The notes: generated by a model from the sequence alone, not told the origin. A DNA stretch of 55,012 nt from a bacterium (GCA_017554565.1 JAFZID010000167.1:1-55012), one strand, 5' to 3'; shown: positions 3,592 to 32,521, numbered from the stretch's first letter. A program made the numbers and translations.

Positions 3592-3615
3592 AAAAGATAC
3601 AGATACGAAAACAAA

Positions 3616-3645
3616 AGCGGAGCGAATGCTCCGCTTTCATTTTTT
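3616..3645 (+). terminator. Rho-independent terminator at the backbone / island A boundary
   Basis: The stem AGCGGAGC / GCTCCGCT has a GAAT loop and is followed by TTCATTTTTT. Confidence 0.7.
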
Positions 3646-3690
3646 GATAAAATTGAAATAAGTTAGCATATTGACCGGTATACAACGTAT

Positions 3691-5802
3691 ATGTTTTCCC
3701 TTGGCAAACCACTATTTTTTTTATTTGCATTGCTCTTTTGTGTTCTAATAACGCAAGAGAGTATGGCCGAACAGCCAAATCCAGAACCTTCGGTCATGAC
3801 AAATAGCACAATAATGTGTTTTTCTCCCAATAAGCTCACCAACAGCATAAACGAAAAAATATTTTTCCCTGAGTCATATGAAATAGAAGTTGATTTACGC
3901 GATGTCCCGGATTGGCTGAATTATGTTTCCAAAACAACTAACGATTATAAGATAATAAACATATTTGTTAAGCCTTATTACCGCAATTTTGCCGACCTTA
4001 AAGCTCAGATGTTAAAAACTTGCTTGGCAAAGAGAGAAAACGGTGAGGTTGGCAAATATGATGTCCCTGGAGAAAGCGGACCTCCTGCCGATCTTTATGA
4101 ATTTATTAATTGCGAATGGGACCCCGGAAGCGATTCAACATATACGGTTGGCGAAATTAATAAATTCGCTTATTTGGAAAACACGATTCCTCCCGACAAC
4201 GGAAATAAAACATATATGCTTTTTCAAACAGTTGCAACAAATAACGTTCCTGATGTGGATTATTATCTCTTATACCCAAGAAGCAGAAATTACAATGTCT
4301 GGGTGAAAAACCAATCAAATCTTAACAACAGTTTAAAGGTGAGCATAATCCAAAGTAACGAAGTTAAGAAAACAAAAATAGTGGACAAAAGCAGCAATTT
4401 TGTTCTGTCATTGTCTTGTTCAAATCTTAATGAAAAAATAGAAAGCTATGTAAAAGTTGAACATCCGGATGGAACGCTTATCACAAACAAGCAATATTCG
4501 CTATATGCCAAAAGTTATTACGAGGTGAAAGAAGGAAAAGAATGGAACAAATCAAAAGCGAGCGCATATTTTTCCAATGGATGTCAACAAGTTATATATA
4601 CATTTAAACCATTGAATAAAAATACAGTTTTCGAAGTAAGCTCGGATGTAGAAGATGATGCTTTATGGAACAATTTGGATGTTTGTTTTTTCGACAAAAA
4701 TTATCAACAACTTTATATAAATAATAACAATATTTTTAACGGGAGGATTAAAAATCATTTTTCCATTGAAACAAACACTAACGGTTTTTTTAAGCGTTTT
4801 AACTTCACTAATCTTCAAGCATCAAACACATATTATTGCGTTGTAAAATCAAATTCAAATTTCGATGCTTTCTCAATGTGCATCTATGCTAGAGTTAGTA
4901 GAATAAAGCCTGTCTTTTTAGTACATGGCATAGATTCATCGCCAAAATCTCAAAACGATCCTGGAACAGCTTTTGATGAACTTAGAGAATCTTATCCCTA
5001 TTTTGATATAAGGCCGTTCAAGAGTTATGATTTTATATGGGATTCGGCAGCAAGCGGAAGCATTTTAGATAATTATGTGGGAAATGTGTTTGGTTCGTTT
5101 ATAAGTGACAATCGAAAATCCGATGATTTGAAAGGCACAATAGTAGCACATTCTATGGGATGCCTTTTAACTTATTATCAATGCAAAATGGAAAATACAC
5201 AGTTTAAACAAAATATCGACAATATCGTTTTAGCTGCTCCGCCTTTTTTTGGATCGGCAACAGCTAACGCCGCTTACCTTTTGAACCCAATCTCACCCAT
5301 AATCAAAAAGACATCAAGTAAGAATCTTGAATTGTTATCCCGCGGAACAGCCTCCAATTGGGACAGACATAAATATCCTTTTGCGTTTAATCACAAAAAT
5401 ATATCTGTGCTAATTGGAACCGATAAACACGCCACCATATACGATGCAGCCGTTTCAACTTTTGATTCTGCTGGTAAGCTTACAGATTTGAACGCTCTTA
5501 CTGATATGCAAGTTGTATTTGACGCAACAACAGATTTCTTTTTTGATTTTTTTGAATCTGCATTGGAAGTTACCGTTGACTCAATGTCAAGAATGTCATT
5601 TATGATAAATCCTATAAAAACTAGCGAGGTTTACTATCTGAATCGCAGCGACGGAGTCGTCGGAACATATTCCGCCCATTTTAATGATAACATTGACGCA
5701 GAGGAAATCAATCAAATACACAGTTATGTACAAAAATTTAATTCAAGAAATAACATTTTTGTCAACAAGGTCAAAAACAGAATAAATAACTTAGGAGATT
5801 AA
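3691..5802 (+). CDS. Secreted protein with a C-terminal lipase-like alpha/beta hydrolase domain
   Basis: There is a signal-like N-terminus (LFFLFALLFCVLITQESMA). The C-terminal half has PVFLVHGIDSS (oxyanion-region-like) and the nucleophile elbow VAHSMGC (GxSxG). The N-terminal 400 aa are unassigned. Confidence 0.7.
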   Translation: MFSLGKPLFFLFALLFCVLITQESMAEQPNPEPSVMTNSTIMCFSPNKLTNSINEKIFFPESYEIEVDLRDVPDWLNYVSKTTNDYKIINIFVKPYYRNFADLKAQMLKTCLAKRENGEVGKYDVPGESGPPADLYEFINCEWDPGSDSTYTVGEINKFAYLENTIPPDNGNKTYMLFQTVATNNVPDVDYYLLYPRSRNYNVWVKNQSNLNNSLKVSIIQSNEVKKTKIVDKSSNFVLSLSCSNLNEKIESYVKVEHPDGTLITNKQYSLYAKSYYEVKEGKEWNKSKASAYFSNGCQQVIYTFKPLNKNTVFEVSSDVEDDALWNNLDVCFFDKNYQQLYINNNNIFNGRIKNHFSIETNTNGFFKRFNFTNLQASNTYYCVVKSNSNFDAFSMCIYARVSRIKPVFLVHGIDSSPKSQNDPGTAFDELRESYPYFDIRPFKSYDFIWDSAASGSILDNYVGNVFGSFISDNRKSDDLKGTIVAHSMGCLLTYYQCKMENTQFKQNIDNIVLAAPPFFGSATANAAYLLNPISPIIKKTSSKNLELLSRGTASNWDRHKYPFAFNHKNISVLIGTDKHATIYDAAVSTFDSAGKLTDLNALTDMQVVFDATTDFFFDFFESALEVTVDSMSRMSFMINPIKTSEVYYLNRSDGVVGTYSAHFNDNIDAEEINQIHSYVQKFNSRNNIFVNKVKNRINNLGD

Positions 5803-5804
5803 AT

Positions 5805-7649
5805 ATGAAAAACCAAATTAAATCTTTATTTTTTATCGTTTTTATGACATTTCCTGTCACTGCGGTTGATATTGATTTTTCTTCAGGAGGATACAATGTA
5901 AAAAAAGAAGAAATCAAAGACAAGATAAAATACGAAAAAAGAACTTCTGATGAAATAGAAACCGAACGCCAAAAAATCAAAGAAGAAAAAAATAAAGCCG
6001 AGGCGGAAAAGATAATAGAAAAGCAGCCGTGGCGCAAAATATTATTTGAAAACAAAAAGGTAGTTAACGGAGATTATGTCAACGAGACTTCAAATTCCGT
6101 TGTTATTGCCGTTTTAGATAGAGAAAGGATGAAAAAAGATGGCGTTAAAAATTCGGAAGCAAATAGAAAAAACTATTGCCTTAATTTATTGCTTCTTCCT
6201 GGTGACAAATACCATGTTGCGAATAGCGAAAGCAATGGTTTTAGACTGGCAACATATGAATGGGCTCATAAAAAGAGAGAGCAACTAATAAAAGAACATG
6301 AATTAAATTATATAATGAATTTTGATAAAGACAAGGACGGGTTATCTTTTTATGAAGAATTATGCGGGACAAATATATTGTTAAAATTAGAGGAAGGCGA
6401 TAAAGAGATATGGGCAATAACCGACATTAACACTAAAGACACTGATCGAGATGGTCTTTCAGATTTTGAAGAAATAAAAGGAATCAAGGGATTTGTGACA
6501 GATCCTCTGGATCCGGACACAGATAAAGATGGAATCCCAGACGGCGTTGATCGCAACCCTTTGATCAAATGCAAATCTAGCGATCCAAGCTTAATGCCGC
6601 AAGAATGGATTGAATACCTGAGTAAAGGTGATCCTGAAAAAGCGAATTTATTGAGATTAGCCAAAGGCGATCCCGACGGCGACGGAATTACCAATGAACA
6701 AGAAATGATTTTTTCAACTGATCCTCTCGAAGCGGAGCAAGAAAAAGCAATAGTCTATCCAAAGCAGCTTTTGCTCAGATACAACGGAAAAGGTGCTTAT
6801 AACTGTATAATCAATGTGTATTTCAATCGTGACGAACCGGCTAATTGTCTATTATGGACGGATAGCGACGGATTTGGCAATAGAATGAACATAGAGAATC
6901 TTAAAATTAAACATTTGTCTAGTTCTCCATTGGGATGGAAACCGTCCTCTCTTAAAACGATTTTTAGCCAATACAAATTTAAAACCAAATATATGGCGGC
7001 AAAAATTGAACCGAAAACCATACATACATTTAAAATTATTTACGAGCCAAACGATACATCACATCTTTATTATGAACACATTCATGTTTCTCTATGTGAC
7101 CTGGGGACTAACCCTGATGATAGAGACGGGTTCATGTATCCTTTTTTCAAAACTAATGTAAGGATAGATCAGAATTATTTTAATCCCGGTATTTCTTCTA
7201 TCAACAATAAGAATTATTACCCAAAACCGCCTGAATTGCTGTATCCTCCGGATGACTTTATTTACGAGACGTTCACCAACAATTTCTTTGTCTATCAAGA
7301 CATTTCAGAAAAATACAAAAACATGAAATGGCAATGTTCGCTTAAAATATTGCCATCAAGAATTTTGAAACCTAATGACGGAGGCATAGGTTTTAAGAAC
7401 CTCTATTCACTGCCAAATAACAAAAAGGAAGCAATTGCCAAAATCAACGATTTTAACAAGAACACCTGTTTGTGGTTTTTAGCACTTACAGACCCTGTTT
7501 TTAACCATTGCATGGTATATTCTGACATAAGAATAATGTTCAAGAAAGATAAAATTACCGAAGACCATCCTTTGGTTTTCAAAGGAAACACCGAGGAAGA
7601 GATTTTAAAGGAAATCGAAAAACGATATAAAGGGACAGTTATAAAATAA
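5805..7649 (+). CDS. Secreted thrombospondin-type-3-like calcium-binding repeat protein
   Basis: AGGAG RBS and a signal peptide are present. D-x-D-x-D-G repeats include DKDKDGLSFYEE, DTDRDGLSDFEE, DPDTDKDGIPDGVD and DPDGDGITNEQE (nt about 6319-6735). Confidence 0.75.
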   Translation: MKNQIKSLFFIVFMTFPVTAVDIDFSSGGYNVKKEEIKDKIKYEKRTSDEIETERQKIKEEKNKAEAEKIIEKQPWRKILFENKKVVNGDYVNETSNSVVIAVLDRERMKKDGVKNSEANRKNYCLNLLLLPGDKYHVANSESNGFRLATYEWAHKKREQLIKEHELNYIMNFDKDKDGLSFYEELCGTNILLKLEEGDKEIWAITDINTKDTDRDGLSDFEEIKGIKGFVTDPLDPDTDKDGIPDGVDRNPLIKCKSSDPSLMPQEWIEYLSKGDPEKANLLRLAKGDPDGDGITNEQEMIFSTDPLEAEQEKAIVYPKQLLLRYNGKGAYNCIINVYFNRDEPANCLLWTDSDGFGNRMNIENLKIKHLSSSPLGWKPSSLKTIFSQYKFKTKYMAAKIEPKTIHTFKIIYEPNDTSHLYYEHIHVSLCDLGTNPDDRDGFMYPFFKTNVRIDQNYFNPGISSINNKNYYPKPPELLYPPDDFIYETFTNNFFVYQDISEKYKNMKWQCSLKILPSRILKPNDGGIGFKNLYSLPNNKKEAIAKINDFNKNTCLWFLALTDPVFNHCMVYSDIRIMFKKDKITEDHPLVFKGNTEEEILKEIEKRYKGTVIK

Positions 7650-7666
7650 TACTTGGAGTAAATATT

Positions 7667-9475
7667 ATGAAAATAACTGCGAATTCTGTCGCACTATATT
7701 TTTTTATAAGCATTATTCCGTTGCTGGTTGACGGTGAAGCGACGTATCTTAAAAATCACGAACCCAACGAATATTGGACGAAATCTTTTTTTAGTTTGAA
7801 AGAACAAGTTTGCATAATACAGTCCCAGTATGTTTCAATCACATCAAGATTGGCAAAACTCGAATATGATATTCCTTCAAAGTTTCAATGTCTTTCTAAT
7901 TTGTTCCAAACATCCAATTCTAGATTTTATGTCGATAACAACGCGCGTATTTATTATGACACTTACGAGCTAAGTGATTTTGAAAAGCTTTTCGTTTATT
8001 CTGAAGGCGATCGTTATGGCAATCCCGATCCTCCCTCCCCGTATGCAACTTTAGCCCAACTTACAGCCGTCTCAAATCAAGTCGTAGCGTTAAGCGCATC
8101 GTTTTCGACTTTGAGTTCTAATTTAACGAGCCTATCAAATATCGTCAGTTCCATAACATCATCCATATCTAACTCCCAGGGATCATTACAAAATCTAACG
8201 ATTGCCTATAACAGATTGGATGAGATCTGCGACAACTTAACTTCTGTGATTAAAGTTAATACTGATGGCAGCGTGGTTATGTGCAAATCATCTCCAATTA
8301 TTGGGAGGAAAGAACCTACAGGAATTGCTTCTGTTTATTCTCTTGCTCAAAACTGGGACAGATGCTGCAGTAAGTTTAGAGTCTCTACAAATACGTTCCT
8401 TGAGAGCGTTACTCTATATTGCGATGATCCTAGTAAAATGCCGTCGCCGTGGAATGTTTACGTATCAACTGTTGTCCAAGATGAGGTGACAGGAAATTAC
8501 TCGTTTGAATCATGGCATTGCGTAAATGTCAACACTTCCGATTTCCCCCGGTGTGTTTGGACTTTTGTTAATAATAGGAAAATACCTATCCAATATGACA
8601 GAGATTATTTGCTATGTATAAGCAAAAGCAACGGTGCGTTATACCCGTATGTTACATCTCCCTTTAGGCAGGGAAGTTTCTATAAACCTTTTGGAGCGAC
8701 AGAAGAATTACCTCCAGATCCCCCGCCAAATTCTCCAGAACCAGAATTACCGCGCAGCAGTCCCAGCGCTCAGGCTTGGTTTGATTATTTGTTTTATTAT
8801 GATTGGGAGGAAAGCATTTTTTATCCCAAAGAACTTTGGTCTATCTTGAAATTTACCGATGATGAGAGTTTTACTTTTAACGAAAAAGGTCTGACGGTAG
8901 AAAGCGGTAATATTACTATAGCTGGCTCAGAGGTCGTTACCAGCTCAAGCTTAAGTAATATGTTTATTTCTGAGTTTTCCAATAACCCTAATATAACTTG
9001 GGAAATGTTTTGCCAAGAATTGCAAAAAAGACTTATAACAACAGCTGGAGGGTCAATTACAGACTGCCTTGAAGTTACTCAGATGAAATTCAACGCAGAT
9101 TCTGATTGGAAAATTGGCGATACCAATATTTGCAGTGATATCGTGATGCTTCATGAAGATGCGAAAATACGCAGTAATGTTGGTGATCTAAAACTGTCTG
9201 CTCATGAAGGGGATAAAATTAGCGCGGAATCTTTTCTTAGTTTTGAATCGGGCGGGCAAGCAGGTATAGCACTCATTCCTATGGGACAAACAGAAAAATC
9301 TGTTTCATGTTTGGATATAACTGACCAAGCTGTAATAATGCTAACGCCTAGACAGCCTGTAAGCAATATTTGGTGGGGTGTGCAAAGCGTTCCAAGCAAT
9401 TCATGCTTTAAGATTGTCATTGATAAAACATGGCCTGAAAATCTCGGGTTCAATTATATAATAATTCGCAAATGA
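7667..9475 (+). CDS. Secreted hypothetical protein (602 aa) with a Ser/Leu-rich coiled segment
   Basis: GGAG RBS and a signal-like N-terminus are present. A heptad-like Ser-rich stretch reads LAQLTAVSNQVVALSASFSTLSSNLTSLSNIVSSITSSISNS. The gene is coupled to the next one. I recognise no domain. Confidence 0.65.
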   Translation: MKITANSVALYFFISIIPLLVDGEATYLKNHEPNEYWTKSFFSLKEQVCIIQSQYVSITSRLAKLEYDIPSKFQCLSNLFQTSNSRFYVDNNARIYYDTYELSDFEKLFVYSEGDRYGNPDPPSPYATLAQLTAVSNQVVALSASFSTLSSNLTSLSNIVSSITSSISNSQGSLQNLTIAYNRLDEICDNLTSVIKVNTDGSVVMCKSSPIIGRKEPTGIASVYSLAQNWDRCCSKFRVSTNTFLESVTLYCDDPSKMPSPWNVYVSTVVQDEVTGNYSFESWHCVNVNTSDFPRCVWTFVNNRKIPIQYDRDYLLCISKSNGALYPYVTSPFRQGSFYKPFGATEELPPDPPPNSPEPELPRSSPSAQAWFDYLFYYDWEESIFYPKELWSILKFTDDESFTFNEKGLTVESGNITIAGSEVVTSSSLSNMFISEFSNNPNITWEMFCQELQKRLITTAGGSITDCLEVTQMKFNADSDWKIGDTNICSDIVMLHEDAKIRSNVGDLKLSAHEGDKISAESFLSFESGGQAGIALIPMGQTEKSVSCLDITDQAVIMLTPRQPVSNIWWGVQSVPSNSCFKIVIDKTWPENLGFNYIIIRK

Positions 9476-11874
9476 AAAATCATATATTGATACCGCTTGT
9501 TATTTTGTTCTCCTTCTATACGTCCATCGGATACGGGTTAGTTGCTGGCGTTGAAATCAAGGTCAATTTTAGTGAATTTGCCGAGGGATATGATCATATA
9601 AGTATAAGTCCCGACGCTAGAGTTTATGCATGGATAAATACCGGACACGGATATGCTTGGATTAATTTAACATCTTTCATTAAATTTGACGCCAATATAC
9701 CCATCTATCCTAACGTGGCTATTAGGAGTTTCAACGGAACCGAGTTAATTGAAGAGCAATCTTTACCGCTTTCAATGATTAAAAGCGGAATGGTTTACGA
9801 ATATTTCAATGTTTATGGTAATAAAATGCCTGGTAAAATAGCTTTAGTTATGTATTATAATAGTTGTCTGGACTTTTTAAATATTTCAAGTCCTGATGAT
9901 ATACAGGAATTTGATAGCTGCGGACCAATAAACGCAGATACCATGTATTTCCTTGATGCCACAATGAAAATCATCTCATCGGGACAGCCGTCTATAATTC
10001 CGCCAACCGCTCTTTCAACAACTTTTAGCAATTATTTAACTAATGATTTTGTAAATGATTTTTCAACATCAAGGGTCGCAAAGATTATTGCTCCTAATAA
10101 TCCGTATTATGGGGAGTATCAAAATTATCTGAATCTAAATTCCCAAGGGATGATACCGGACGGTTATACGCATCCTGTGTGGGACGAAATTGCTGATGAG
10201 ATAGAGGTTGAGCCAGGAGAAAAAATAACTTTGCCAGACGTCAACAATTGTTTTCACATTCAGATGAATCGGTTGATCTACGATAATGATGGCGATGGCA
10301 TTCCGACAGCCGTTGAATTTTTAAAAACTCTTACAAATCCATTTGAAAAAGACACTGATTTTGATGGGCTTGGAGATTATTGCGAAATCTTCGGAACCAA
10401 CATGGTTCTTAAATTGACTACTGGAGACAGAAATATAGATGTGTTTACTATAGCAATAGTGCCTGATACTGACGGAGACGGGATATCTGATGGTGATGAA
10501 TTTCTCGGCAAACACCTTTATCCTTCTGGAGGAACTAATAATTGTTATCGCACCAATCCCTGCTCGATAGATAGCGACGATGATGGAATGCCTGATGATT
10601 TGGATCTTCATCCCCTCGACCCAAGTAACATCAAATCTGATTGGACAAATTATTGGGCAATAATAGCTGATAGAGCGGGGCTTGCCTTGACGGATTTGTA
10701 TGATGACAACGCCGATTGTGACGACGATGGAATAAGTAATTTAAACGAAATGCTAAATAAAACTAATCCCTTATTCAGCAATGGTTTTCACAAAGTTATT
10801 TTTGATCCCCCAAAATTAGATCTTACAGTTGGGAATCATTCCGTAACTACGTCCTTTTCTGCGACATTGTTTGCCCCTGATGCTATTACCGGTGCTGTTC
10901 ACATCAGCAACCTTGATTGGCCAGTTCAGATTTTGCTAACAAACAAACTAAGCGTGCTTTGGCCGGATTTTCTGCCAGAAATGCCTGATGATGTTTCCGT
11001 CACTTTTACCAGTCCTAACTATCAAAAACTTAATTTCGTTTTGATATTGGACCCCAAAACAATGAACAAAGGCGTGACTCAGGAATGGGTGAGAGTCGTT
11101 GATCAATATGGGCCATACAGCCAGGAACTACCTATAACTTGCAACATGTTGTTTGGGAACTATAATCTCGCTCCCTCCGTTCCAGAGCTGATTGCACCAA
11201 CCGATGGAGCGATTTTCTATCTTACGAACAACGTGTGGAATGTTGATTTAACCAATTATTTTACTTGGAGCGAATCTGTTGATCCCGAGGGGAGCAATGT
11301 TAATTACATATTAAAGTTGTTTCATAACGACGATTCGTTATCTATTACGACAGAATATACCCATATTGCTTTGCCAATATCAGAATATTTTACAGAGATA
11401 GGATTTTATAACTGGATGGTCTCTGCTTTTGATGATCAAGACAATTTGAGAACCAGCAGGCAGCGTAGTTTTTATGTTTGGATCCCAGGAGACACTGATA
11501 AAGACGGATTTGACGATAATTACGAGATTAGGCACGGCACTGATCCATTTGATCCCAAATCAACACCTTTGCTCATAGATATTGACGAAATGTTGCCAGA
11601 CGGATACCTAGGAAGAGAGTATTTTTATCGTTTGAAGGTCAGAGGAGGCTCTAGACGCCCGTGCTTCTGGCTTCTTAGCACTAAGGGAAAACCTCCTCTT
11701 GGTCTGCATGTAACATTTGACGGAGAATTAAGAGGAATTCCGGAAGAAGAGGGGGCTTTTGATTTTTATATTTCTGTTTTCGACGGTGAAAAATATGAAA
11801 CAAAACCTGTCCGTTTAACCATTAACCCCAAAAGGGAAGGCTTTGGAGTCGAAGCTGGAAGAGGAGAATTATGA
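9472..11874 (+). CDS. Secreted TSP3-like calcium-repeat protein with a C-terminal putative Ig (He_PIG-like) domain
   Basis: The start overlaps the upstream stop by ATGA. Repeats include DNDGDGIPTAVE, DTDFDGLGDYCE, DTDGDGISDGDE, DSDDDGMPDDLD, DCDDDGISNLNE and DTDKDGFDDNYE. The C-terminus LPDGYLGREY...GLHVTFDGELRGIPEEEGAFDFYISVFDG resembles the putative Ig domain. Confidence 0.75.
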   Translation: MKNHILIPLVILFSFYTSIGYGLVAGVEIKVNFSEFAEGYDHISISPDARVYAWINTGHGYAWINLTSFIKFDANIPIYPNVAIRSFNGTELIEEQSLPLSMIKSGMVYEYFNVYGNKMPGKIALVMYYNSCLDFLNISSPDDIQEFDSCGPINADTMYFLDATMKIISSGQPSIIPPTALSTTFSNYLTNDFVNDFSTSRVAKIIAPNNPYYGEYQNYLNLNSQGMIPDGYTHPVWDEIADEIEVEPGEKITLPDVNNCFHIQMNRLIYDNDGDGIPTAVEFLKTLTNPFEKDTDFDGLGDYCEIFGTNMVLKLTTGDRNIDVFTIAIVPDTDGDGISDGDEFLGKHLYPSGGTNNCYRTNPCSIDSDDDGMPDDLDLHPLDPSNIKSDWTNYWAIIADRAGLALTDLYDDNADCDDDGISNLNEMLNKTNPLFSNGFHKVIFDPPKLDLTVGNHSVTTSFSATLFAPDAITGAVHISNLDWPVQILLTNKLSVLWPDFLPEMPDDVSVTFTSPNYQKLNFVLILDPKTMNKGVTQEWVRVVDQYGPYSQELPITCNMLFGNYNLAPSVPELIAPTDGAIFYLTNNVWNVDLTNYFTWSESVDPEGSNVNYILKLFHNDDSLSITTEYTHIALPISEYFTEIGFYNWMVSAFDDQDNLRTSRQRSFYVWIPGDTDKDGFDDNYEIRHGTDPFDPKSTPLLIDIDEMLPDGYLGREYFYRLKVRGGSRRPCFWLLSTKGKPPLGLHVTFDGELRGIPEEEGAFDFYISVFDGEKYETKPVRLTINPKREGFGVEAGRGEL

Positions 11875-14081
11875 CTAAATTTTATCTTTTGACTGCAGCT
11901 TTGTTGCTTATATCATTTGGCGTTAAGGCTGAGTTTGTCCTAAAGGAGATTCCTTCGGCAGGGCATATCGTTTGCGCGAAAAGCGAGGACGGATTGCGGG
12001 TCTTAAACTTTAACGACAGGCAGTTCATTACGATCGAATTTGAGAAAGGGCTGCAGGTTCCATATCACGCCAACTCCGACGATGTCTTTTCCTCTTCCCC
12101 GCTTAGAGAGCTTTACACCCTGCTCATTGTTGATGACGGTGTTCACAATGTTAAAGTTAAGGTTAATCTCCGTCAAAACGCGGGCATATTGCGAACCAGA
12201 AGAGCAGCCGGCGGAGAAGCCATACTGGCTCAACTTGGCAACCCCCTTGTTTACGGCGTCAACGGGTTGTATGACATGGATGAAGATGCCTGTTTGGAAT
12301 GGTACTGCGACGGATGGAAGTGGGACGACACTAAAATGAAAAGAGAAGCGGACGGGACGTTGTCTGCGTCCTTTACGGCTGTGGTTTCCAATCATTTCAT
12401 GAGTTTTTACTTCAGGCCGCATTATTACCGGGATCATTTGGGATACCGAAATCATGAGCCATGGATAAGGCGGCTGAATCCCAGAAGCATGAACGGCTGG
12501 TGTTCCTGGGTGGCATACTATTACGATCTGGACGATGGTAAAATCGAACGAACGGCTGATTTTATCGCTAAAAATTTCAAGCCTTACGGCATGAATTTTC
12601 TTCAGGTGGACAACGGATTTCAAGGGAAGGTGTTCACTCGTTTCGAGCCGTTCCGCTCTCCAGGTCCGGATAGAAGAGAAGTCAATCTGGTTAACCTTTT
12701 CAAGGGAACTTCAAAAAGATTTCCCAAAGGTCCGCCTCAAATTGCAGAGATCATAAAGGCGAGGGGCTTGGAGCCGGGCATTTGGATGAACACGGATCTC
12801 TTTGCCTACGAGCAGCCCGAAGACAAAAGGGACATTTTGTGCAGGAAGCCCGATGGTACGCCTACTAAGTCGCATTGGACTAGGTATATGGCCGACATGT
12901 CAGATTTTACGATCACAAATTATTATGCGCCTCTTTTTAAATATATCAAGGATGCCGGATTTACTTATCTGAAAGTTGACGGAATGCGGCATACTTTCCT
13001 GGACGGACTGAACGTCGCTTACGAGCCACAGGAGGCCAGAAGACGTTTCAGGAACTTTGCCTTGGCAGCCAGGCTGACCTGCGGAGACGATATGTATCTT
13101 ATGTCGTGCTGGGGAATGATGAACGAGATAGCCGGCGCTTTCGACGCCTGCCGCGTGTCGGTGGATTGCGGCGGGAACTGGGAGGATTTTCACAGATCGC
13201 TTTATTATTCAGCAGAATTTTATTCCACGCACAGAATAGTTTTCCTGAACGATCCCGACCATATAGTTATGCACGCTCATCCGGAATGGTCACGCACCAG
13301 AGTGTCAAACGTTTCGCTGACGGGAGGACTTCTTTCCTACAGTGATAAAAACGAGCAGATGACAGATGAACTGATTTATATGTTGCAAAGAGGCTTGCCG
13401 GCCTTAGAAACGCGAACCGCGGAATGCGGCGACATACATCCCAATCATCCTTCCGCCAGAATATACAGCCGGGAGTATTTTGATTCCGATATATCGGAAG
13501 AGATGGCTATGAAACAGATGGGGCCGAGCGTGGAGCCGGGAGTAGCTTCGCCGTTCTCAACCTTGTGGGCTATTCATATCGAAAAACCTTACGGTCAGTG
13601 GTGCGTTGCACAAAGAAACGCGATCTGGTCGCTTGTTGAAGATGACACGCCGATGGAAAAACTTGGCCTTGATCCAACTAAAACTTATCTTGGATATGAT
13701 TTCTGGGAACAGAAATATCTTGGCGAAATAAAAGGCAGGATGCATTGGGATTGTTTGCCGTATGGCAGGACAAAAGTGATTGCCTTGAGAGAAAAACTTG
13801 ATATTCCGCAATTGATAGGTTCCAGCAGACATGTCAGCATGGACGCCGTGAGCGTTGAGGATATAGTCTGGCAAGGTTCGGTTTTGAAATTAAAACTGAA
13901 ATGCGTGCCTGAAACGAAGGAAACATATGTTTTTCACATTCCGAAGGGCTTTTCTTTTGAAAAAGCAGAAGCTGCGGGAGGAACTCCAGAGACTGTTCAG
14001 GAAGGAGAAATTGTAAAAATTGCCCTAACAGCCAAACTATCGGACGTTGAATTGAACTTAAACTTTGTTAAAAGTAATTGA
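11871..14081 (+). CDS. GH27/GH36-clan (alpha-galactosidase-like) glycoside hydrolase, secreted
   Basis: GAGGAG RBS and an ATGA overlap with the upstream gene. Signal peptide present. Clan GH-D-like motifs are NGWCSW (about 12491), LQVDNGF, LKVDGM (candidate nucleophile Asp, about 12969) and FLNDPDH (candidate acid/base, about 13248). Confidence 0.65.
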   Translation: MTKFYLLTAALLLISFGVKAEFVLKEIPSAGHIVCAKSEDGLRVLNFNDRQFITIEFEKGLQVPYHANSDDVFSSSPLRELYTLLIVDDGVHNVKVKVNLRQNAGILRTRRAAGGEAILAQLGNPLVYGVNGLYDMDEDACLEWYCDGWKWDDTKMKREADGTLSASFTAVVSNHFMSFYFRPHYYRDHLGYRNHEPWIRRLNPRSMNGWCSWVAYYYDLDDGKIERTADFIAKNFKPYGMNFLQVDNGFQGKVFTRFEPFRSPGPDRREVNLVNLFKGTSKRFPKGPPQIAEIIKARGLEPGIWMNTDLFAYEQPEDKRDILCRKPDGTPTKSHWTRYMADMSDFTITNYYAPLFKYIKDAGFTYLKVDGMRHTFLDGLNVAYEPQEARRRFRNFALAARLTCGDDMYLMSCWGMMNEIAGAFDACRVSVDCGGNWEDFHRSLYYSAEFYSTHRIVFLNDPDHIVMHAHPEWSRTRVSNVSLTGGLLSYSDKNEQMTDELIYMLQRGLPALETRTAECGDIHPNHPSARIYSREYFDSDISEEMAMKQMGPSVEPGVASPFSTLWAIHIEKPYGQWCVAQRNAIWSLVEDDTPMEKLGLDPTKTYLGYDFWEQKYLGEIKGRMHWDCLPYGRTKVIALREKLDIPQLIGSSRHVSMDAVSVEDIVWQGSVLKLKLKCVPETKETYVFHIPKGFSFEKAEAAGGTPETVQEGEIVKIALTAKLSDVELNLNFVKSN

Positions 14082-14084
14082 CCG

Positions 14085-15149
14085 CTATTTCGCCACTGTC
14101 ATCCTGTTGACGACCCACTTCGCGCCGCGGCCGTGTCCTTCCGGACGGATGAGGCCTTCCTCTTTCATTTTCTTCAGGACGTTCCTTACCATGTCGTGGC
14201 TGACCAGGGGGCAGTCGTCCTCGATCTCGGAAAGGCTGAAGGGCACAAAGCGCTTCAAAACCGCCGCCCTCACCTGCTCGCTCTTCGTTCCTCTGCCCGT
14301 GCCCATTCCGCGCACCCCTTCCTCCAGCTCGTGATAAGCCTTCAAAAGCATGCCCCAGAAATAATTCAGCCAGGGATGGACGTCGTGCTTGCCTTCGTGC
14401 CAAAAGTCGGAGCTGGCCTTCAAAGCGGCGTAATATTCCGTCTTGGCCTGCTCGGTTATCCTTTCCAGAGAAACGTAGCGGCCCACGTTGTAATCGCAAT
14501 GGTAAAGCAGAAGCAGCGTCAGCAGTCTGGCTATTCTGCCGTTGCCGTCCCTGAAAGGATGGATGCAGAGGAAATCCAGAATAGTCAGAGGAATGACGAT
14601 CAAGGGCTCGATGTCCATCGTGCCGATGGCCCTGCTGTAAGAGGAAACAAGATCTTCCATAGCCTGGGGCGTCTCCGCCGCGGGAACCGCGCGGAACCTC
14701 ACTCTCAGAAGCGTGCCGTCGGGATTGTATTCCCTGATCTCGTTGTTGGTCGTTTTGAATTTCCCGCCTTCCTCCGGCATATAGCCGTAGAGCGTCTTGT
14801 GCATTTTCAGGATCGTGTCGACCGCGAAGGGCATGTACGTCCCCTCTTTATGGATGAGCGCCAAAACGTCCCTGTATCCCGCCACTTCCTGTTCCGAGCG
14901 GTTCTGCGGCTTCGATTCCTCCTTCACCAGGGCCTTCACTCTCTCCCTCGGCGTAACGTTGCCCTCTATCCTCGTGCTCGATTCGCTCGATTCAATCAGC
15001 GCGATGTGCCTTAAAGACTCCAGCGTTTCCGGCGTCTGCTTCGCGAACAAAAGCTGCATGCCCTGGTATTCCCCCAGGCGCTTCAAGGTTCCCAGCTGCT
15101 CCTTGCTGAAAAGCAGGGAAGACAAAAATTTTTCGTTCAGTGACTGCAT
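14085..15149 (-). CDS. Fic-family protein (class II, self-inhibited) with a C-terminal winged-helix domain
   Basis: The canonical Fic motif HPFRDGNGRIARLL lies at nt about 14524-14565. An N-terminal inhibitory motif STRIEGN ([S/T]xxxE[G/N]) lies at about 14958-14978. I chose the ATG at 15149, which has GGAG 6 nt upstream, over the ORF-track start at 15209. Confidence 0.9.
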   Translation of the reverse strand: MQSLNEKFLSSLLFSKEQLGTLKRLGEYQGMQLLFAKQTPETLESLRHIALIESSESSTRIEGNVTPRERVKALVKEESKPQNRSEQEVAGYRDVLALIHKEGTYMPFAVDTILKMHKTLYGYMPEEGGKFKTTNNEIREYNPDGTLLRVRFRAVPAAETPQAMEDLVSSYSRAIGTMDIEPLIVIPLTILDFLCIHPFRDGNGRIARLLTLLLLYHCDYNVGRYVSLERITEQAKTEYYAALKASSDFWHEGKHDVHPWLNYFWGMLLKAYHELEEGVRGMGTGRGTKSEQVRAAVLKRFVPFSLSEIEDDCPLVSHDMVRNVLKKMKEEGLIRPEGHGRGAKWVVNRMTVAK

Positions 15150-15346: not shown

Positions 15347-17845
15347 ATGTCTATGAACAAATTACTTCTTTTTCTCGCTTTGGCGAGCCTGGCTGCTTTT
15401 GCCGAGACCGTGGTTCTCGATATATCGGAAGCTCCCATCACTTTTACCTCCGAAGGCGTCAGCGGTAAGGATCCCGAGGGCGAAGACGTTGAGGGATCGT
15501 ATGACGAATACATCATCGAGGGTTCCCCGTATTATAGAGACTACGTGATCAAGGTCCAAAGCGGCACGCACAACATTACCCTCAGGAACGTTAACATCAC
15601 CTATCCCGAAACGATACCTTTCGACATGTCGCCCGGCGCCAGCGTCACTATGACTTTGTCCGGTCAGAACGCCTTTACCATGCCGTTTGAAAAGGAAGGT
15701 TCTCCCGTGCATGTGCCTGAAGGCGCCAGTTTGACCATTCAGGGCGAAGGGTCCCTGACCGCCACCGCGCTGGAATCCACCTACGGCGCCGGAATAGGCA
15801 GCGTAAGAGGGGAAAATTCCGGCGTCATCACCATCAACGGCGGAACTATCTCGGCGCGCGGCGACTATTATTCCGCGGGCATCGGCGGCGGCTATGAAGG
15901 CCGCGGCACCGTGATTATCACAGGCGGCGACATCACGGCGGAAGCCCTGGGCTGCGGTGCGGGCATCGGCGGCGGCGGCAACGCCGGCGGCAGCGGCAAT
16001 TACAGGTACGGCACCTGCGACGTTACGATAAGCGGCGGCCGGATCAAAGCCAAAAGCGACACCGGCGCCGGCATCGGGCATGCCTGGTATGCCTCCAATG
16101 ACCCGGCCGGCACTGTGACCATAACCGGCGGAACGATAGAAGCCGAGAGCAGGGAAGGCGCGGGCATCGGAGCCGGCGGACTGGGCTACGGCCCGAACAT
16201 TTACATCAGCGGCGGATCTATCAAAGCGACATCGACCGGCGGCGGAGACAAAGTCGGCGCCGGCGTCTCCTCCTCCTGCCCCGATCCGCGTACGGGCGTT
16301 AACGGCGAACGCGTCAATTTGGCGACGGTGCGCGAGGCCTTCGCTGATCAGGGACAAAGTTATCTTTTCACCATGTACAGATCCGGCAGCGACTATCCCT
16401 ACACTTATTTCGGATCCGGCTATACCGCCGACAACGATAATGATCTGTATTTTTATCTGCCAAGCGCCGAATTTTTCGGCGACGAATATGACGTCAAGGG
16501 CAGCAACGGCCGGTACTTCTGGGGAAGGATCCGTGATGGCGAGGAAGGCGAGCTGAACCTTTATTTCTGTGAAAATCTGACTTTGGATATCAGTGACGGT
16601 CCCATATACTTCGATTTCAGAAATAGCGAAGCGTATCAATACACAGACCCTTACGATCCTGATTGGAGAACGACTATATGCGCCAGCGACAACTATATCA
16701 TAAAAGGCACATACGCTCCGGACTACGAAGACGATCAACGGCCAAGATACGGCATTGCTGTCTATTCAGAGACAACAATTATCACTAATAAGATCACTTT
16801 GGAAAACTGCAATATCAGCGCTGCGTCCGCCTTCCGCTTGGAAGAAAATGCCTCTGTAGAATTGGTCTTGAAAGGCGTCAACACGCTGCGCTCTTCCTCT
16901 GACGCCGGTATTTTCGTATCTTCAGGCACCACGCTGACGATTTGTTCTGAAAGCACCGGCTCTCTCTTTGCTTACGGCGGCAAGCACAGCGATGACGACG
17001 AATTTGATGATGAATTTGACGATGAAATTATCGGAAGAAATTACAAAGCGGGCGCAGGTATCGGCGGTTACCATGAAGAAGAGCCAGGCAGAATGATAAT
17101 CAACGGCGGAACGATCACAGCCGAAGGAGCGAAAGGCGCCGCTGGTATCGGCGGCGGTTACGGCGATTCGGCCTGGGTTCGTTATTTGACCATCAACGGC
17201 GGCAACATTACCGCAATAGGTCATCATGGCGCAGGCATCGGCGGCGGCCAGGGAAGCATCTGCGATCTCACCATTACCGGCGGAAATATCATAGCTTCCT
17301 CTGATGACGGCGCAGGCATCGGATCCGGCAAAGACGCCACATATCATGGCAAAGTAATCATTACCGGCGGAACGATAAAAGCCACTAGCACGGACGGATC
17401 GGGCATAGGCGGCGGCGATGGCGGAACCATCCCCGATATCTACATCAGCGGCGGCTCAGTCTGGGCTTCTTCCGCCAATGGCTCTCCAATAGATCAGGCT
17501 CGGACCAGGGAAGGCGGCGAAACGGTCTATCAGGCGACTCTGCAGAACGCGATGGTCGCACCAGAAACCTCAGGCTATCATATCATGGGCGTTTCGGAAG
17601 AAGTGACTTTCACTACGAAGAAAGACGGTTCTGCTTACGATTACTCCTACACCGGCACGGGTTATGCCGACAGCAACGATCTCTATTTCTATCTGCCGGA
17701 CGGCTCTTATGTGATCACAGGCTCGAACGGCAGATTCACGGGCGGAACGATCAGCGGCGGCAGCGCTTCCTTCGTGGTCTTGCCGGAACCAGCATCGCTC
17801 GCCGCGCTGCTGGCTTTCCTCGCTCTCTACCTCCGCAGGAAGTAG
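15347..17845 (+). CDS. PEP-CTERM-anchored repeat protein made of two ~400-aa modules with GG-x-I/V...GAGIGGG turns
   Basis: Signal peptide present. Ten copies of [IV]TI[ST]GG.I.A....GAGIGGG-like units are arranged as 5 + 5. The C-terminus VLPEPASLAALLAFLALYLRRK has the PEP motif, a TM helix and a basic tail. Confidence 0.85.
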   Translation: MSMNKLLLFLALASLAAFAETVVLDISEAPITFTSEGVSGKDPEGEDVEGSYDEYIIEGSPYYRDYVIKVQSGTHNITLRNVNITYPETIPFDMSPGASVTMTLSGQNAFTMPFEKEGSPVHVPEGASLTIQGEGSLTATALESTYGAGIGSVRGENSGVITINGGTISARGDYYSAGIGGGYEGRGTVIITGGDITAEALGCGAGIGGGGNAGGSGNYRYGTCDVTISGGRIKAKSDTGAGIGHAWYASNDPAGTVTITGGTIEAESREGAGIGAGGLGYGPNIYISGGSIKATSTGGGDKVGAGVSSSCPDPRTGVNGERVNLATVREAFADQGQSYLFTMYRSGSDYPYTYFGSGYTADNDNDLYFYLPSAEFFGDEYDVKGSNGRYFWGRIRDGEEGELNLYFCENLTLDISDGPIYFDFRNSEAYQYTDPYDPDWRTTICASDNYIIKGTYAPDYEDDQRPRYGIAVYSETTIITNKITLENCNISAASAFRLEENASVELVLKGVNTLRSSSDAGIFVSSGTTLTICSESTGSLFAYGGKHSDDDEFDDEFDDEIIGRNYKAGAGIGGYHEEEPGRMIINGGTITAEGAKGAAGIGGGYGDSAWVRYLTINGGNITAIGHHGAGIGGGQGSICDLTITGGNIIASSDDGAGIGSGKDATYHGKVIITGGTIKATSTDGSGIGGGDGGTIPDIYISGGSVWASSANGSPIDQARTREGGETVYQATLQNAMVAPETSGYHIMGVSEEVTFTTKKDGSAYDYSYTGTGYADSNDLYFYLPDGSYVITGSNGRFTGGTISGGSASFVVLPEPASLAALLAFLALYLRRK

Positions 17846-17874
17846 ATCCCGACAATCTACCTTTTTTGCTAGCG

Positions 17875-17906
17875 AAAGGCTCCCTCGTTCCGGGGGAGCC
17901 TTTTTA
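17875..17906 (+). terminator. Rho-independent terminator
   Basis: The stem AAAGGCTCCC ... GGGAGCCTTT is followed by a T-run. Confidence 0.7.
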
Positions 17907-17968
17907 TTCCCCTGCTCCGCATTTGCTAAAATATAATGATGTAAATCAACTACCCAAGGGGGAATTAA

Positions 17969-30539: not shown

Positions 30540-31604
30540 TTATTTGTAAATCTGATCTCTGACAATTTCAACGAACCCTGTTATATCCAAGTAATAGTTT
30601 GGGTAGGCTTCGTTCAGTTGTTTAATAGAAGACACACGAACAAGTACCGCATCTGTTTTATCTTTCTCTCTGGTTTGTTCAATCTCATCATATTTTTTGT
30701 TTGCTTCCAAAAAATCGCTGGATTGATATAAGATAATATTCAACTTTTTTTCTTCGTAATTTAATTTCAAAATAGCATAAGCAGCATTTTTATCAAACTT
30801 TTTATCCTTATTAGCCTGAGTTGCAGACTTCACTCCAGAAAGAAATTCTAGATATTGATTTTTTATATCAAGTTCTTTAATTTCTTTTATAAGCTCTTCT
30901 TTACTAGATGGCGTATTGGGCACACATGGTTGTCCCTCTAAGATAGCAAAGAGAGATGAAACTAAAGCAAAAAAACGTCTAATATCACGTGACCCGCCAC
31001 CAGCTTTTATGGCCTCTCTTTTAAAAGTCCCCATGGTTTCTACGGCGGTTGCCCAAGCATGCTGAAGGCGAGAACGAAACTGAATTTCAATCAGCATGTT
31101 TCTGTTGTAGTCCTCACGTTTATCACTATGATATTTATATACTGCATGTAGACTTCTGTATCCATCTTCTTTTGGGTTCTTTATATAATCTTTAACTCTA
31201 ATTTTGATATGTCGTTTTCGAGATTTATCATATTTCTCGAAATATTCATAAACATTCTCTCCTGGCGGTACAACCATTCTACAACCACCTATGTCCTGCA
31301 TCTCCCATAAACTCATAAATGGCTCCCGCTCTAATTTGTTGATAATAGAGTCCTTTCTTTTTAATCTTTCGGCAACAATTATATTTGATTTGTTCTTAGT
31401 AAATCTTCGCAAGTGAATATAAATAACATGCATTGGAAAAGCGTGAGAGGCGCGCCAATTGTTCAGAACTTTTTCGGATTCTAAATCCAAACATCCTTTT
31501 TTTATATTCCGCCCAGCTTTTAAAATTTGGCCCTTTGAATACTCAAGTTTTTTCCATTTTGGTTGTTGGATTTTTTTCATATAATATTCCTCATCTTTAA
31601 GCAA
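30540..31604 (-). CDS. RelA/SpoT-domain protein (small alarmone synthetase / toxSAS-like) with a ~150-aa C-terminal extension
   Basis: Synthetase-fold motifs are MQDIGGCRMVV, DGYRSLHAVYKY and IEIQFRSRLQHAWATAVE. No HD hydrolase domain is present. Confidence 0.85.
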   Translation of the reverse strand: MLKDEEYYMKKIQQPKWKKLEYSKGQILKAGRNIKKGCLDLESEKVLNNWRASHAFPMHVIYIHLRRFTKNKSNIIVAERLKRKDSIINKLEREPFMSLWEMQDIGGCRMVVPPGENVYEYFEKYDKSRKRHIKIRVKDYIKNPKEDGYRSLHAVYKYHSDKREDYNRNMLIEIQFRSRLQHAWATAVETMGTFKREAIKAGGGSRDIRRFFALVSSLFAILEGQPCVPNTPSSKEELIKEIKELDIKNQYLEFLSGVKSATQANKDKKFDKNAAYAILKLNYEEKKLNIILYQSSDFLEANKKYDEIEQTREKDKTDAVLVRVSSIKQLNEAYPNYYLDITGFVEIVRDQIYK

Positions 31605-31640
31605 AAATTCAATTGTTTAAACGCTATTAAGCAAAATGTG

Positions 31641-32486: not shown

Positions 32487-32521
32487 AACAAATGATTTAT
32501 CTAATGTTTATTTATAATTAA

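Follow-up and report, generated by a model that had tools for sequence, protein, structure and literature searches.

An exchangeable five-gene cassette for exported proteins in an uncultured rumen bacterium, with a possible role in extracellular binding and catalysis

The window examined here, a 55,012-nucleotide stretch of DNA from an uncultured rumen bacterium, carries an AT-rich, 10.4-kb cassette in which five coupled genes encode exported proteins (p1 to p5). It belongs to a previously undescribed, site-hopping, lineage-specific cassette family, and sequence comparisons indicate a system native to that lineage and exchanged within it. We give roughly even chances to the reading that the cassette is a lineage-specific exchangeable operon for an assembly of five extracytoplasmic proteins with both binding and enzyme components.

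Boundaries and organization of the cassette

The features that define the cassette and its left edge are as follows.

3614-3645, plus strand: intrinsic terminator (hairpin 3614-3637, T-run to about 3645) that terminates the upstream 417-aa core gene
3644-3672, plus strand: candidate sigma-70-like promoter, TTGATA-17-CATATT, proposed from consensus match alone, 19 nt 5' of the p1 ATG
3650-14085, unstranded: AT-rich cassette, 10.4 kb, with edges set by comparison with sister-species empty sites

The cassette starts immediately past the T-run of this terminator, the hairpin of which was likewise found at the empty site of one sister species (G007). When the junctions were compared with empty sites by blastn, left homology stopped at 3649 and right homology restarted at 14086, so that position 3650, given as the start in a preliminary description made from the sequence alone, is the true left edge of the insert. 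The five open reading frames (703, 614, 602, 800 and 736 aa) span 3691-14081 and are arranged as first described, with a 2-nt junction between p1 and p2 (TAA-AT-ATG), a 17-nt gap containing GGAG between p2 and p3, and ATGA overlaps at p3/p4 and p4/p5. In other cassettes, TTGACA-17-TAtAAT precedes the first gene. The signal peptides proposed earlier were also recovered, as all five proteins have a hydrophobic signal-type N-terminus; p1-p5 would be exported via Sec. No internal transmembrane-like segments were found in the five proteins, and no lipobox, PEP-CTERM or LPXTG anchoring signals were seen in their sequences.

The drop in GC content behind the terminator held up as well: the cassette genes have 35-39% GC and the last gene 47% (0.346, 0.347, 0.386, 0.392 and 0.468 from p1 to p5), against 54% (0.543) for the genome. 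GC at third codon positions is 0.32-0.35 in the cassette genes and 0.51 in p5, compared with 0.74-0.83 in adjoining core genes. As the preliminary description had stated for secretion and regulatory genes, none of these, and no mobility genes, lie within the block 3650-14085. The classical hallmarks of a genomic island or transposon were not found: there is no integrase or transposase in or adjoining the insert, no direct or inverted repeats at the cassette ends, and the tRNA target and flanking repeats of such elements are missing.

Presence, absence and exchange within the lineage

At 3650-14085 the genomes differ by an insertion/deletion polymorphism: in four sister species (G002, G006, G007 and G008), the 417-aa gene lies directly next to a Fic gene. 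This site is filled in type-A order in both G003 and L020, and in a permuted order in the window. A second site, at metG, is empty in G000 and occupied in a relative with 94-98% identical flanks, with about 30 bp replaced rather than duplicated. A third site, between genes for an Ala racemase and a metallopeptidase, is seen in three states in three genomes: empty, with a cassette in canonical order, and with one in type-A order. Cassette flanks vary from site to site. One and the same site, bounded by conserved flanks, can be empty or be occupied by different, diverged alleles, which is the pattern of an exchanged variable locus. Cassettes probably land just 3' of intrinsic terminators, and they probably swap between strains by recombination in the conserved flanks. 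The order in the window, p1-p2-p3-p4-p5, is permuted relative to the usual p3-p1-p2-p4-p5; its simplest derivation would be from the type-A arrangement, p3-p4-p1-p2-p5, with the two two-gene blocks changing places.

Three diverged paralogous copies are present in this genome, with full sets also on contigs C71 and C111 (tblastn). An identity matrix separated types A, B and C, which co-vary and are common to p1, p2, p4 and p5; all three types occur in this genome, the window copy being type A. The rearranged gene order and the multi-copy family had both been missed in the preliminary description. Beyond these three copies, the five-gene set recurs at ten or more loci of the rumen lineage (found at L009-L012, L020-L022 and L035-L039); every one of these sets is AT-rich, their sites differ, and mobility genes are lacking. 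In all, 12 or more loci show the five genes inherited together, which substantiates the idea of a co-conserved unit for exported proteins. Paralogues at 30-60% identity all remain AT-rich. The putative binding modules have a rate of divergence several times that of the catalytic and calcium-repeat parts.

Horizontal acquisition, as initially suggested, was only partly upheld. The block is a compositionally foreign accessory insert, and its site is empty in four sister species, but the relatives found all come from the same rumen lineage and do not point to a foreign donor. We therefore consider it very unlikely that the cassette is a recent island from an unrelated low-GC donor whose genes are only loosely related in function. 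Although the GC3 gap to the core genes and the empty sites would fit such an origin, all p1 and p3 homologues found in a search of 5.8 billion clusters and 1.84 billion representatives belong to the same lineage and have GC-rich flanks, distant paralogues are still AT-rich, and the gene set is strictly conserved. In addition, a GC-normal core version, p3'-p1'-p4' (fiber, lipase and calcium-repeat protein), exists in G007, G000 and G002. The restriction of the relatives found to one rumen lineage, the three paralogous copies and this core version are the grounds for regarding the system as native to the lineage.

The closest parallels for this mode of variation are variable surface-structure loci of the capsule and O-antigen kind, which exchange through homologous recombination in their flanks, and AT-rich genomic islets without an integrase, in which the same site holds alternative diverged sets or nothing, and which share with the cassette a sub-genomic GC content and the lack of integrase, transposase, target-site duplication and terminal repeats. 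Unlike capsule and O-antigen loci, the cassette has genes for exported proteins, with two hydrolases, and none for polysaccharide synthesis, and several types occupy separate sites in one genome, with gene order permuted between types.

The two predicted enzymes, p1 and p5

3691-5802, plus strand: p1, 703 aa, with a signal peptide and three beta-sandwich modules ahead of a C-terminal lipase/esterase-like domain
3790-4890, plus strand: three p1 beta-sandwich modules (aa 34-400; AF2 model, Foldseek)
4891-5799, plus strand: p1 minimal alpha/beta-hydrolase lipase/esterase domain (aa 401-703; fold match and Pfam LCAT)
5152-5154, plus strand: p1 triad Ser488, in an AHSMG motif
5650-5652, plus strand: p1 triad Asp654, from alignment
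5719-5721, plus strand: p1 triad His677, from alignment
11871-14081, plus strand: p5, 736 aa, signal peptide and GH36-like (clan GH-D) glycosidase
12468-13325, plus strand: p5 catalytic barrel (about aa 200-485), from profile alignment
12978-12980, plus strand: p5 nucleophile Asp370 (YLKVDG), aligned to TmGalA
13164-13166, plus strand: p5 acid/base Asp432 (CRVSVD), aligned to TmGalA

The lipase-like domain recognized earlier in p1 was corroborated by a Pfam LCAT match of 23.9 bits (cut-off 21) and by a Foldseek match to the Bacillus licheniformis lipase BlEst2 (6wpy; prob 1.0, TM(target) 0.52, E 3.4e-4); at the sequence level, this domain had no match in the PDB. The beta-sandwich part matched the tandem binding domains of ColG (Foldseek, E 8e-9). 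Ser488, Asp654 and His677 are invariant across 24 sequences; the AF2 model has a pLDDT of 77, and the loop bearing the triad Asp falls in a low-confidence segment (aa 640-663), such that the triad is known from alignment and not from model geometry. The A-H-S-x-G elbow, the Ser-Asp-His order and the compact, Bacillus-lipase-like alpha/beta-hydrolase fold are common to p1 and the minimal family I.4-type lipases (Bacillus subtilis LipA type, BlEst2) and make the domain I.4-like. In contrast to these lipases, the p1 domain is part of an exported protein of 703 aa, in which it is fused behind a row of three beta-sandwich modules, and it contains a long helical insert (aa ~583-640).

The glycosidase core suspected in p5 was likewise confirmed at the family level. 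A family profile (A4) searched against the PDB matched Thermotoga maritima GalA (1zy9/5m0x; E 3.5e-31) and many GH27 and GH36 entries. Asp370 and Asp432 are invariant in 19 sequences and align to D339 and D399 of 1zy9_A, corresponding to native D327 and D387, the residues to which Comfort et al. (2007) reportedly assigned the catalytic roles in TmGalA. As a single sequence, the window p5 scored 21.1 bits against Pfam Melibiase, under the 27-bit cut-off, and several relatives have a precomputed PF02065 match. The Melibiase-type (beta/alpha)8 barrel match and both catalytic Asp residues place p5 in GH36/clan GH-D by sequence, and the NDPD motif of clan GH-D alpha-galactosidases is also conserved in its family. 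The match to TmGalA is limited to the catalytic barrel (~280 positions), and a GalA-like activity, as a retaining alpha-galactosidase-type GH36-like enzyme, is predicted. Unlike TmGalA, p5 carries a signal peptide and has unassigned N- and C-terminal regions, and its family is separate from GalA and present also in Kiritimatiellia and Paenibacillus.

In the examined members of the genus (G007, G000 and G002), a canonical GH36 gene (Melibiase, 1.3e-102) adjoins the core p3'-p1'-p4' locus, where it is divergently oriented and not co-transcribed. Lipase and alpha-galactosidase are therefore linked twice in the genus, through p5 in the AT-rich cassettes and through GH36 beside the core locus. A related four-gene cassette on C194 ends with a gene unrelated to p5, implying that the galactosidase is not universal in the wider family.

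Calcium-repeat and fiber-like proteins

5805-7649, plus strand: p2, 614 aa; behind the signal peptide, the mature protein has a conserved N-terminus (DFSSGxY), a run of charged Lys/Glu residues and a TSP3 array
6315-6740, plus strand: p2 TSP3 calcium-repeat array (aa 171-312), motifs in alignment
7667-9475, plus strand: p3, 602 aa, with a signal or anchor helix at the N-terminus, a coiled coil and two beta domains
8051-8251, plus strand: p3 long coiled coil (aa 129-195), profile matches
8324-8701, plus strand: p3 beta-sandwich (aa 220-345), AF2 model
9014-9472, plus strand: p3 C-terminal beta domain (aa ~450-602), AF2 model
9472-11874, plus strand: p4, 800 aa; behind the signal peptide, the mature protein has a conserved N-terminus (VAGIEI), a variable N-domain, TSP3 repeats, a beta-rich middle and He_PIG
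10267-10791, plus strand: p4 TSP3 array (aa 266-440), motifs in alignment
11488-11571, plus strand: second p4 TSP3 repeat, after the beta-rich middle region
11572-11841, plus strand: p4 Ig-like He_PIG domain, family matches

The TSP3 repeats (PF18884, DxDxDGxxDxxE motifs) and Ig-like domain named in the preliminary description were found by family matching: TSP3 in seven of seven p4 relatives (best 3.3e-12) and six of seven p2 relatives (best 7e-8), and He_PIG in three of seven p4 relatives. The window copies of p2 and p4 score under the PF18884 cut-off, with the motifs visible in alignments. The TSP3 cassettes of the two proteins are paralogous. The sole match of p2 in a PDB profile search was the TSP3 region of an OmpA-family protein, and its C-terminal half evolves fast and matches no known domain; weak CglD/MtsD matches of the TSP3 proteins stem from the repeats alone. 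TSP3 repeats are known from bacterial adhesion proteins, and p2 and p4 may serve as calcium-stabilized scaffold or adhesive parts.

The coiled coil of p3 matched viral spike HR1 and reovirus sigma-1 in profile searches and may assemble p3 into an oligomeric, probably trimeric, fiber or stalk. The AF2 model has a pLDDT of 61 overall and above 80 in both beta domains. Weak Foldseek matches were obtained to tailspike C-terminal domains and CBM32/discoidin-type sandwiches; the match to a phi812 baseplate chain had an E of 6e-4, and those to tailspike C-terminal domains (prob 0.99) were partial, covering ~75 columns of this pLDDT-61 model. The C-terminal domain also terminates ~40 other uncharacterized proteins. 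Across cassette types, p3 is a mosaic in the identity matrix.

Phage tail fibers and tailspikes, like the trimeric coiled-coil fibers of reovirus sigma-1 and Bdellovibrio MAT fibers, place a long coiled coil before beta domains, as p3 does, and the modeled p3 C-terminal domain can be superposed on those of tailspikes at 2-3 A over ~75 residues, with low whole-chain TM-scores and a poor model. Unlike phage fibers, p3 has a signal or anchor helix and lacks phage context and sequence membership. Membership of p3 in a phage structural family was rejected: p1-p5 matched no PHROG family at E 0.01 or better, tblastn against 50,697 phage records gave no match, and IMG/VR held no relative. Derivation of the cassette from a prophage tail-fiber or depolymerase gene set is extremely improbable. 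The AT-rich block and the viral-fiber-like fold of the p3 coiled coil and C-terminal domain are compatible with a domesticated remnant, but the database searches were all negative, other phage genes are absent at all of the 12 or more cassette loci, and all five proteins have signal peptides. Virion proteins normally lack them.

Possible functions

In the assembly that we favor, variable modules would capture a substrate to be processed by the p1 lipase/esterase and by p5, and the three cassette types would confer different specificities. The linkage of lipase and alpha-galactosidase seen twice, together with the rumen habitat, makes an alpha-galactosylated, acylated substrate the favored target class, for example plant digalactosyl-diacylglycerol; alpha-Gal-bearing, ester-decorated glycans on particles or cells are an alternative. 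Some rumen bacteria hydrolyze galactolipids, and a rumen protozoal galactosidase, cited in the same review as an alpha-galactosidase study, frees the galactose of galactolipids (PMC9626764). Against nutrient harvest, no transporter, beta-galactosidase or regulator is linked to the cassette. Loci for nutrient harvest often include one of these.

The fast divergence of surface modules and the multiple types fit an arms race (antigenic, phage or competitor) at least as well as substrate specialization. The cassette might accordingly be a variable surface coat or adhesin locus, exchanged like capsule or O-antigen, in which variation of the exposed modules would help the cell to escape phages or host immunity or would alter its attachment, and the enzymes are secondary, for example in remodeling of the cell's own envelope. 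Allelic types between conserved flanks, low GC without mobility genes, rapid divergence of the putative exposed modules, the mosaic p3 and the occurrence of TSP3 repeats in adhesion proteins agree with this proposal. We nevertheless consider it unlikely, as the genome holds three types rather than one allele per strain, no anchoring signal is recognizable, and neither enzyme departs from its conserved catalytic residues in any type, which argues for a selected enzymatic function.

A module for attack on or contact with other microbes, with a fiber that recognizes the target cell and a lipase and glycosidase that damage its envelope, is quite unlikely. Its attractions are the fiber-like architecture with tailspike-like C-terminal domain matches, the pairing of lipase with glycosidase, and the several types with hypervariable recognition parts. 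However, the cassette lacks an immunity gene, a cell-wall hydrolase and delivery genes, whether of the T6SS, CDI or another kind; its proteins all bear plain Sec signals, and no sequence link to Bdellovibrio MAT fibers or phage proteins was found. To our knowledge, GH36-type alpha-galactosidases are not a recognized means of breaching envelopes.

A bolder form of the favored assembly, which we hold only tentatively and as rather improbable in its entirety, is that p1-p5 form an undescribed modular surface machine of one uncultured rumen lineage, a calcium-stabilized fiber with lipase, alpha-galactosidase and plug-in recognition modules, whose genes stay AT-rich although the genome is GC-rich, and are copied to new chromosomal sites right behind terminators and reordered without a recognizable mobility gene.

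A match to a known polysaccharide-utilization or adhesin locus, which would have spoken against the preliminary interpretation, was looked for and not obtained. A Bacteroidota-type PUL was rejected, with no SusC/SusD or regulator family match among the five genes of the insert; the cassette also differs from PULs and cellulosomes in having no transporter, cohesin or dockerin, and the assembly of its proteins is a proposal. With these systems it shares co-transcribed exported binding modules and hydrolases, and calcium-binding repeats as possible assembly elements.

Operon layout and insertion site

The five open reading frames of the preliminary description were confirmed, all on the plus strand and downstream of an intrinsic terminator:

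3614-3645, intrinsic terminator with a 10-bp stem and a T-run
3691-5802, + strand, p1, 703 aa
5805-7649, + strand, p2, 614 aa
7667-9475, + strand, p3, 602 aa
9472-11874, + strand, p4, 800 aa
11871-14081, + strand, p5, 736 aa

From p1 to p5, the genes are separated first by 2 nt and then by 17 nt containing GGAG, and the last two junctions are ATGA overlaps. A hydrophobic segment of signal type opens each product, which lacks any later transmembrane-like stretch. The upstream genes have a GC content of 0.52-0.58; it drops to 0.35-0.39 across p1-p4 and is 0.47 for p5. GC3 is 0.32-0.35 in the cassette genes (0.51 in p5) compared with 0.74-0.83 in the adjoining core genes.

Four congeneric species (G002, G006, G007 and G008) have the core genes that flank the operon, encoding a 417-aa protein upstream and a Fic protein downstream, immediately beside one another, with a spacing of 10 nt in G002. 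Alignment with the empty site revealed that homology stops at 3649 and restarts at 14086; the insert therefore comprises 3650-14085, starting directly after the terminator T-run and ending 3 nt past the p5 stop codon. Terminal direct or inverted repeats and a target duplication were sought at its ends and were not found, and the insert contains no mobility gene. The same site is filled in the relative G003 and in ENA contig L020, with a gene order different from that of the window. Gain in the window's genome (G000) and loss in the four empty species are both compatible with the data. In L020, the flanking 417-aa and Fic proteins share 82% and 96% identity, respectively, with those of the window. 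Between these two inserts, the divergence of p5 (81% identity) and p4 (71%) is about equal to or somewhat beyond that of the flanking core proteins (82-96%), while p1, p2 and p3, at 57-60% identity, are far more diverged than the flanking proteins.

A second site, between genes for a 198-aa protein and metG, is filled in locus L009 and empty in G000 (contig C139), with flanks that are 94-98% identical. There (L009 9835-9845 versus C139), the insertion point is just 3' of an intrinsic terminator T-run, and approximately 30 bp were replaced, not duplicated. Both of the mapped insertion points (window 3645-3650 and the metG site) are immediately 3' of a terminator T-run. A third site, between Ala-racemase and metallopeptidase genes, is empty in L009 and holds cassettes of two different gene orders, p3-p1-p2-p4-p5 in L037 and the type A order (see below) in L036. 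Upstream of its first gene, every cassette has a TTGACA-17-TAtAAT element close to consensus. These findings raise the question of the route by which integrase-less cassettes reach many chromosomal sites.

Distribution and origin of the cassette family

A tblastn search of the G000 assembly (2.17 Mb in 224 contigs, 86.55% complete, GC 0.543) with the cassette proteins identified two more complete sets, on contigs C71 (11110-21622) and C111 (4023-14469), and a related four-gene cassette was found on C194. All of the complete sets in this genome are AT-rich (GC 0.35-0.40, last gene 0.45-0.47). The last gene of the C194 cassette was considered as a p5 or p4 relative and was unrelated by profile comparison. 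Contig C7 carries two lone AT-rich p3-like genes (6038-7585 and 16446-17990; locus L019), the 515- and 514-aa products of which are without p3 residues ~452-540; similar genes are present in G005. The full set of five genes was also present at L009/L010/L011, L012, L022, L035 (in G007), L036, L037, L038 and L039, where the flanks are unrelated housekeeping or glycosidase genes with a GC content of 0.53-0.58. If the reading of these loci as exchangeable cassettes is true, they would represent a noticeable portion of the accessory genome, with three full copies of ~10 kb plus cousins in 2.2 Mb. The cassettes of L009 and L036-L039 are often beside genes for exported glycan- or protein-degrading functions (PF12044 metallopeptidases with an NPCBM protein, GH97 with NPCBM, GH2, and GH125), which may simply be the gene content of the organism.

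Beyond these genomes, relatives were few. A word-based search of 5.8 billion clusters returned 57 relatives of p3 and 21 of p1, none with an informative name, and a p3 profile HMM scan of 1.84 billion representatives gave 79 matches, approximately seven of them full length. Among 79 species of the assigned phylum, full-length p3 was found only in the window's genus, the compared genomes being incomplete metagenome assemblies in which failure to find a gene does not equal its absence. NCBI records of the relatives derive from yak and other ruminant assemblies, and a genome-contig scan with p3 returned just three short fragments, from yak-rumen assemblies.

The preliminary description proposed that the operon had been acquired horizontally. 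This reading is not favoured: GC-normal homologues reside in the core genome, and no foreign donor was visible in the cluster, representative and phylum searches. A low GC content alone does not set the cassettes apart in G000: similarly AT-rich DNA, including a defence island, makes up approximately 10% of the assembly (45 segments with GC below 0.43, 216 kb in total), and the fibre-lipase cassettes account for about one fifth of this total. A foreign island of loosely related genes is regarded as improbable. The defence island lies in the AT-rich stretch at 30-51 kb of the window itself and, at 30540-48853, encodes an SNF2 helicase, an Eco57I-type methylase, an OLD/UvrD (Gabija-like) pair, a DEAD/MZB helicase and a RelA/SpoT protein.

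The core relative is a locus in G007, G000 and G002 in which a canonical GH36 alpha-galactosidase gene is divergent from a coupled set of p3-like, p1-like and p4-like (TSP3) genes:

G000, C14:14886-20071 plus C76:1-2426 (C14 end joined to C76 start), core locus
G007, C1:271475-279134 (L034), core locus

Its GC content is 0.58-0.60, and its GH36 protein (Melibiase, 1.3e-102) has the GH36 N- and C-terminal domains. Core-type p3-like genes, with products ~30% identical to p3, were present in all nine genus genomes. The presence of this GC-normal locus in the genus indicates that the domain repertoire of the cassettes is native to the lineage. Between species, the fibre and lipase genes of the core locus are 44-54% identical, compared with 88-98% for GH36.

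Cassette types and gene order

Pairwise identities divided seven cassettes into three types: A (window and L020), B (C71 and L022) and C (C111, L009 and L012). The grouping was identical for p1, p2, p4 and p5, with identities within types of 80-85% for p5, 65-74% for p4 and 56-77% for p1 and p2, and between types of 26-56%. In contrast, p3 is mosaic across types, that of the window being 63% identical to p3 of C71 (type B) and 60% to that of L020 (type A). Despite divergence to 30-60% protein identity, the GC3 of the cassettes stays at ~0.33, compared with ~0.75 in the core genome, which raises the further question of why.

Gene order also differs. Nine loci, assigned to types B and C from identity or protein sizes, have the order p3-p1-p2-p4-p5; two (L020/G003 and L036; type A) have p3-p4-p1-p2-p5, and p1-p2-p3-p4-p5 was seen only in the window. 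Genes p1 and p2 are never separated, and p5 is last at every locus. The window order differs from the other type A order by one exchange of two 2-gene blocks, which we infer might have arisen if the blocks were duplicated in tandem and the outer copies then lost. Permuted orders inside a tightly coupled operon are unusual and could help to reveal which subunits need co-production. New observations here are the three co-varying types in one genome, the permuted orders and the insert edges mapped behind terminators.

Protein architecture

In the AF2 model of p1 (pLDDT 77, pTM 0.72), a signal helix is followed by three beta-sandwich modules (aa 34-400) and, at the C-terminus, by an alpha/beta hydrolase. 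In Foldseek searches, the sandwiches matched the tandem collagen-binding domains of ColG (E 8e-9), among other binding modules, and the hydrolase matched the B. licheniformis lipase BlEst2 (prob 1.0); Ser488 (AHSxG), Asp654 and His677 do not vary among 24 sequences. A p5 profile built from 19 sequences aligned with the GH36 enzyme GalA of T. maritima (E 3.5e-31), the invariant D370 and D432 falling in the columns of the GalA nucleophile and acid/base, and a DPD motif (D461-P462-D463) is also invariant. Distant relatives of p5 in Kiritimatiellia and Verrucomicrobia assemblies are annotated as alpha-galactosidase.

The model of p3 is poor overall (pLDDT 61), comprising an N-terminal helix, a 60-residue coiled coil and, as the confidently modelled parts, a beta-sandwich (aa 220-345) and a C-terminal beta domain. 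In this model, the sandwich weakly resembles CBM32/discoidin modules and the last 75 residues superpose on tailspike C-terminal domains, while the coiled coil has profile matches to viral spike HR1 and reovirus sigma-1. A phage remnant would fit such likenesses and is nevertheless very improbable, as neither tblastn searches of phage records with p3 and p1 nor a p3 profile scan of IMG/VR revealed relatives. The C-terminal beta domain (aa ~450-602, window 9014-9472) is always at the extreme C-terminus in ~40 other unannotated metagenome clusters of 140-1170 aa, and Pfam searches of ten proteins sharing it returned no informative domains; its role might be in trimerisation, binding or sorting.

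Proteins p2 and p4 have a TSP3 calcium-repeat array in common, and p4 ends in an Ig-like He_PIG domain; no family was detected for their remaining parts in PDB profile searches, which gave no useful matches with p1, p2 or p4. Scanned against PHROGs and NCBIfam, the five proteins yielded nothing, or just TSP3 or coiled-coil noise far under cut-offs, and a cellulosome-like reading was dropped, as there was no cohesin or dockerin match.

Between types, identity is best kept in the N-terminal region and coiled coil of p3 (52-88%), in the lipase domain (41-53%), in the TSP3 arrays (44-63%) and in p5 (45-56%). The most diverged parts are the p1 sandwiches (13-41%), the C-terminal half of p2 (17-32%), the p4 N-domain (18-28%) and the C-terminal half of p3 (39-56%). 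Adjoining the most variable parts, the residues just behind the predicted signal peptides of p2 and p4 do not vary between types, reading DFSSGxY (p2 aa 24-30, window 5874-5894) and VAGxE...F (p4 aa 24-33, window 9541-9570), and may represent assembly or export motifs. The division into well-kept and diverged parts is the pattern that would be expected if catalysis and assembly were fixed and recognition were changing. A diversity-generating retroelement was considered, and no reverse transcriptase was found in or beside the insert. Also new are the conserved catalytic residues, the constant/variable domain split and the core locus of normal GC content next to a canonical GH36 gene.

Proposed function

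The most likely reading, held with moderate confidence, is that of an exchangeable operon for an extracytoplasmic assembly, in which binding modules that vary are combined with a lipase/esterase and an enzyme of the alpha-galactosidase type. A surface coat or adhesin would likewise be variable; with catalytic residues invariant in both predicted enzymes, we consider it unlikely. A module directed against other microbes, for which the same variable and enzymatic parts would have to serve, appears more doubtful again.

For the preferred assembly of binding modules and enzymes, the enzyme pair, the second association with GH36 and the rumen as habitat suggest a substrate that is both alpha-galactosylated and acylated. 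Judged from sequence, the lipase-fibre set is tied to a predicted alpha-galactosidase in two different ways. Such a substrate, with plant galactolipid as the obvious candidate, is a speculative and rather unlikely proposal. Galactolipid hydrolysis is carried out by only some rumen bacteria, and a protozoal galactosidase, for which the review cites an alpha-galactosidase study, frees galactose from galactolipids (review PMC9626764). If the reading as a binding-plus-enzyme assembly is true, it would reveal an unannotated enzyme-plus-binding system in a poorly known rumen lineage and provide testable candidates for bacterial breakdown of galactolipids or alpha-galactoside esters in the rumen, where few organisms are known to be capable of it (PMC9626764).

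A separate observation concerns the DNA downstream of the insert, where two tandem genes (window 15347-20398) encode proteins of 832 and 809 aa with Beta_helix_3 repeats (Pfam 3e-30 and 7e-23).
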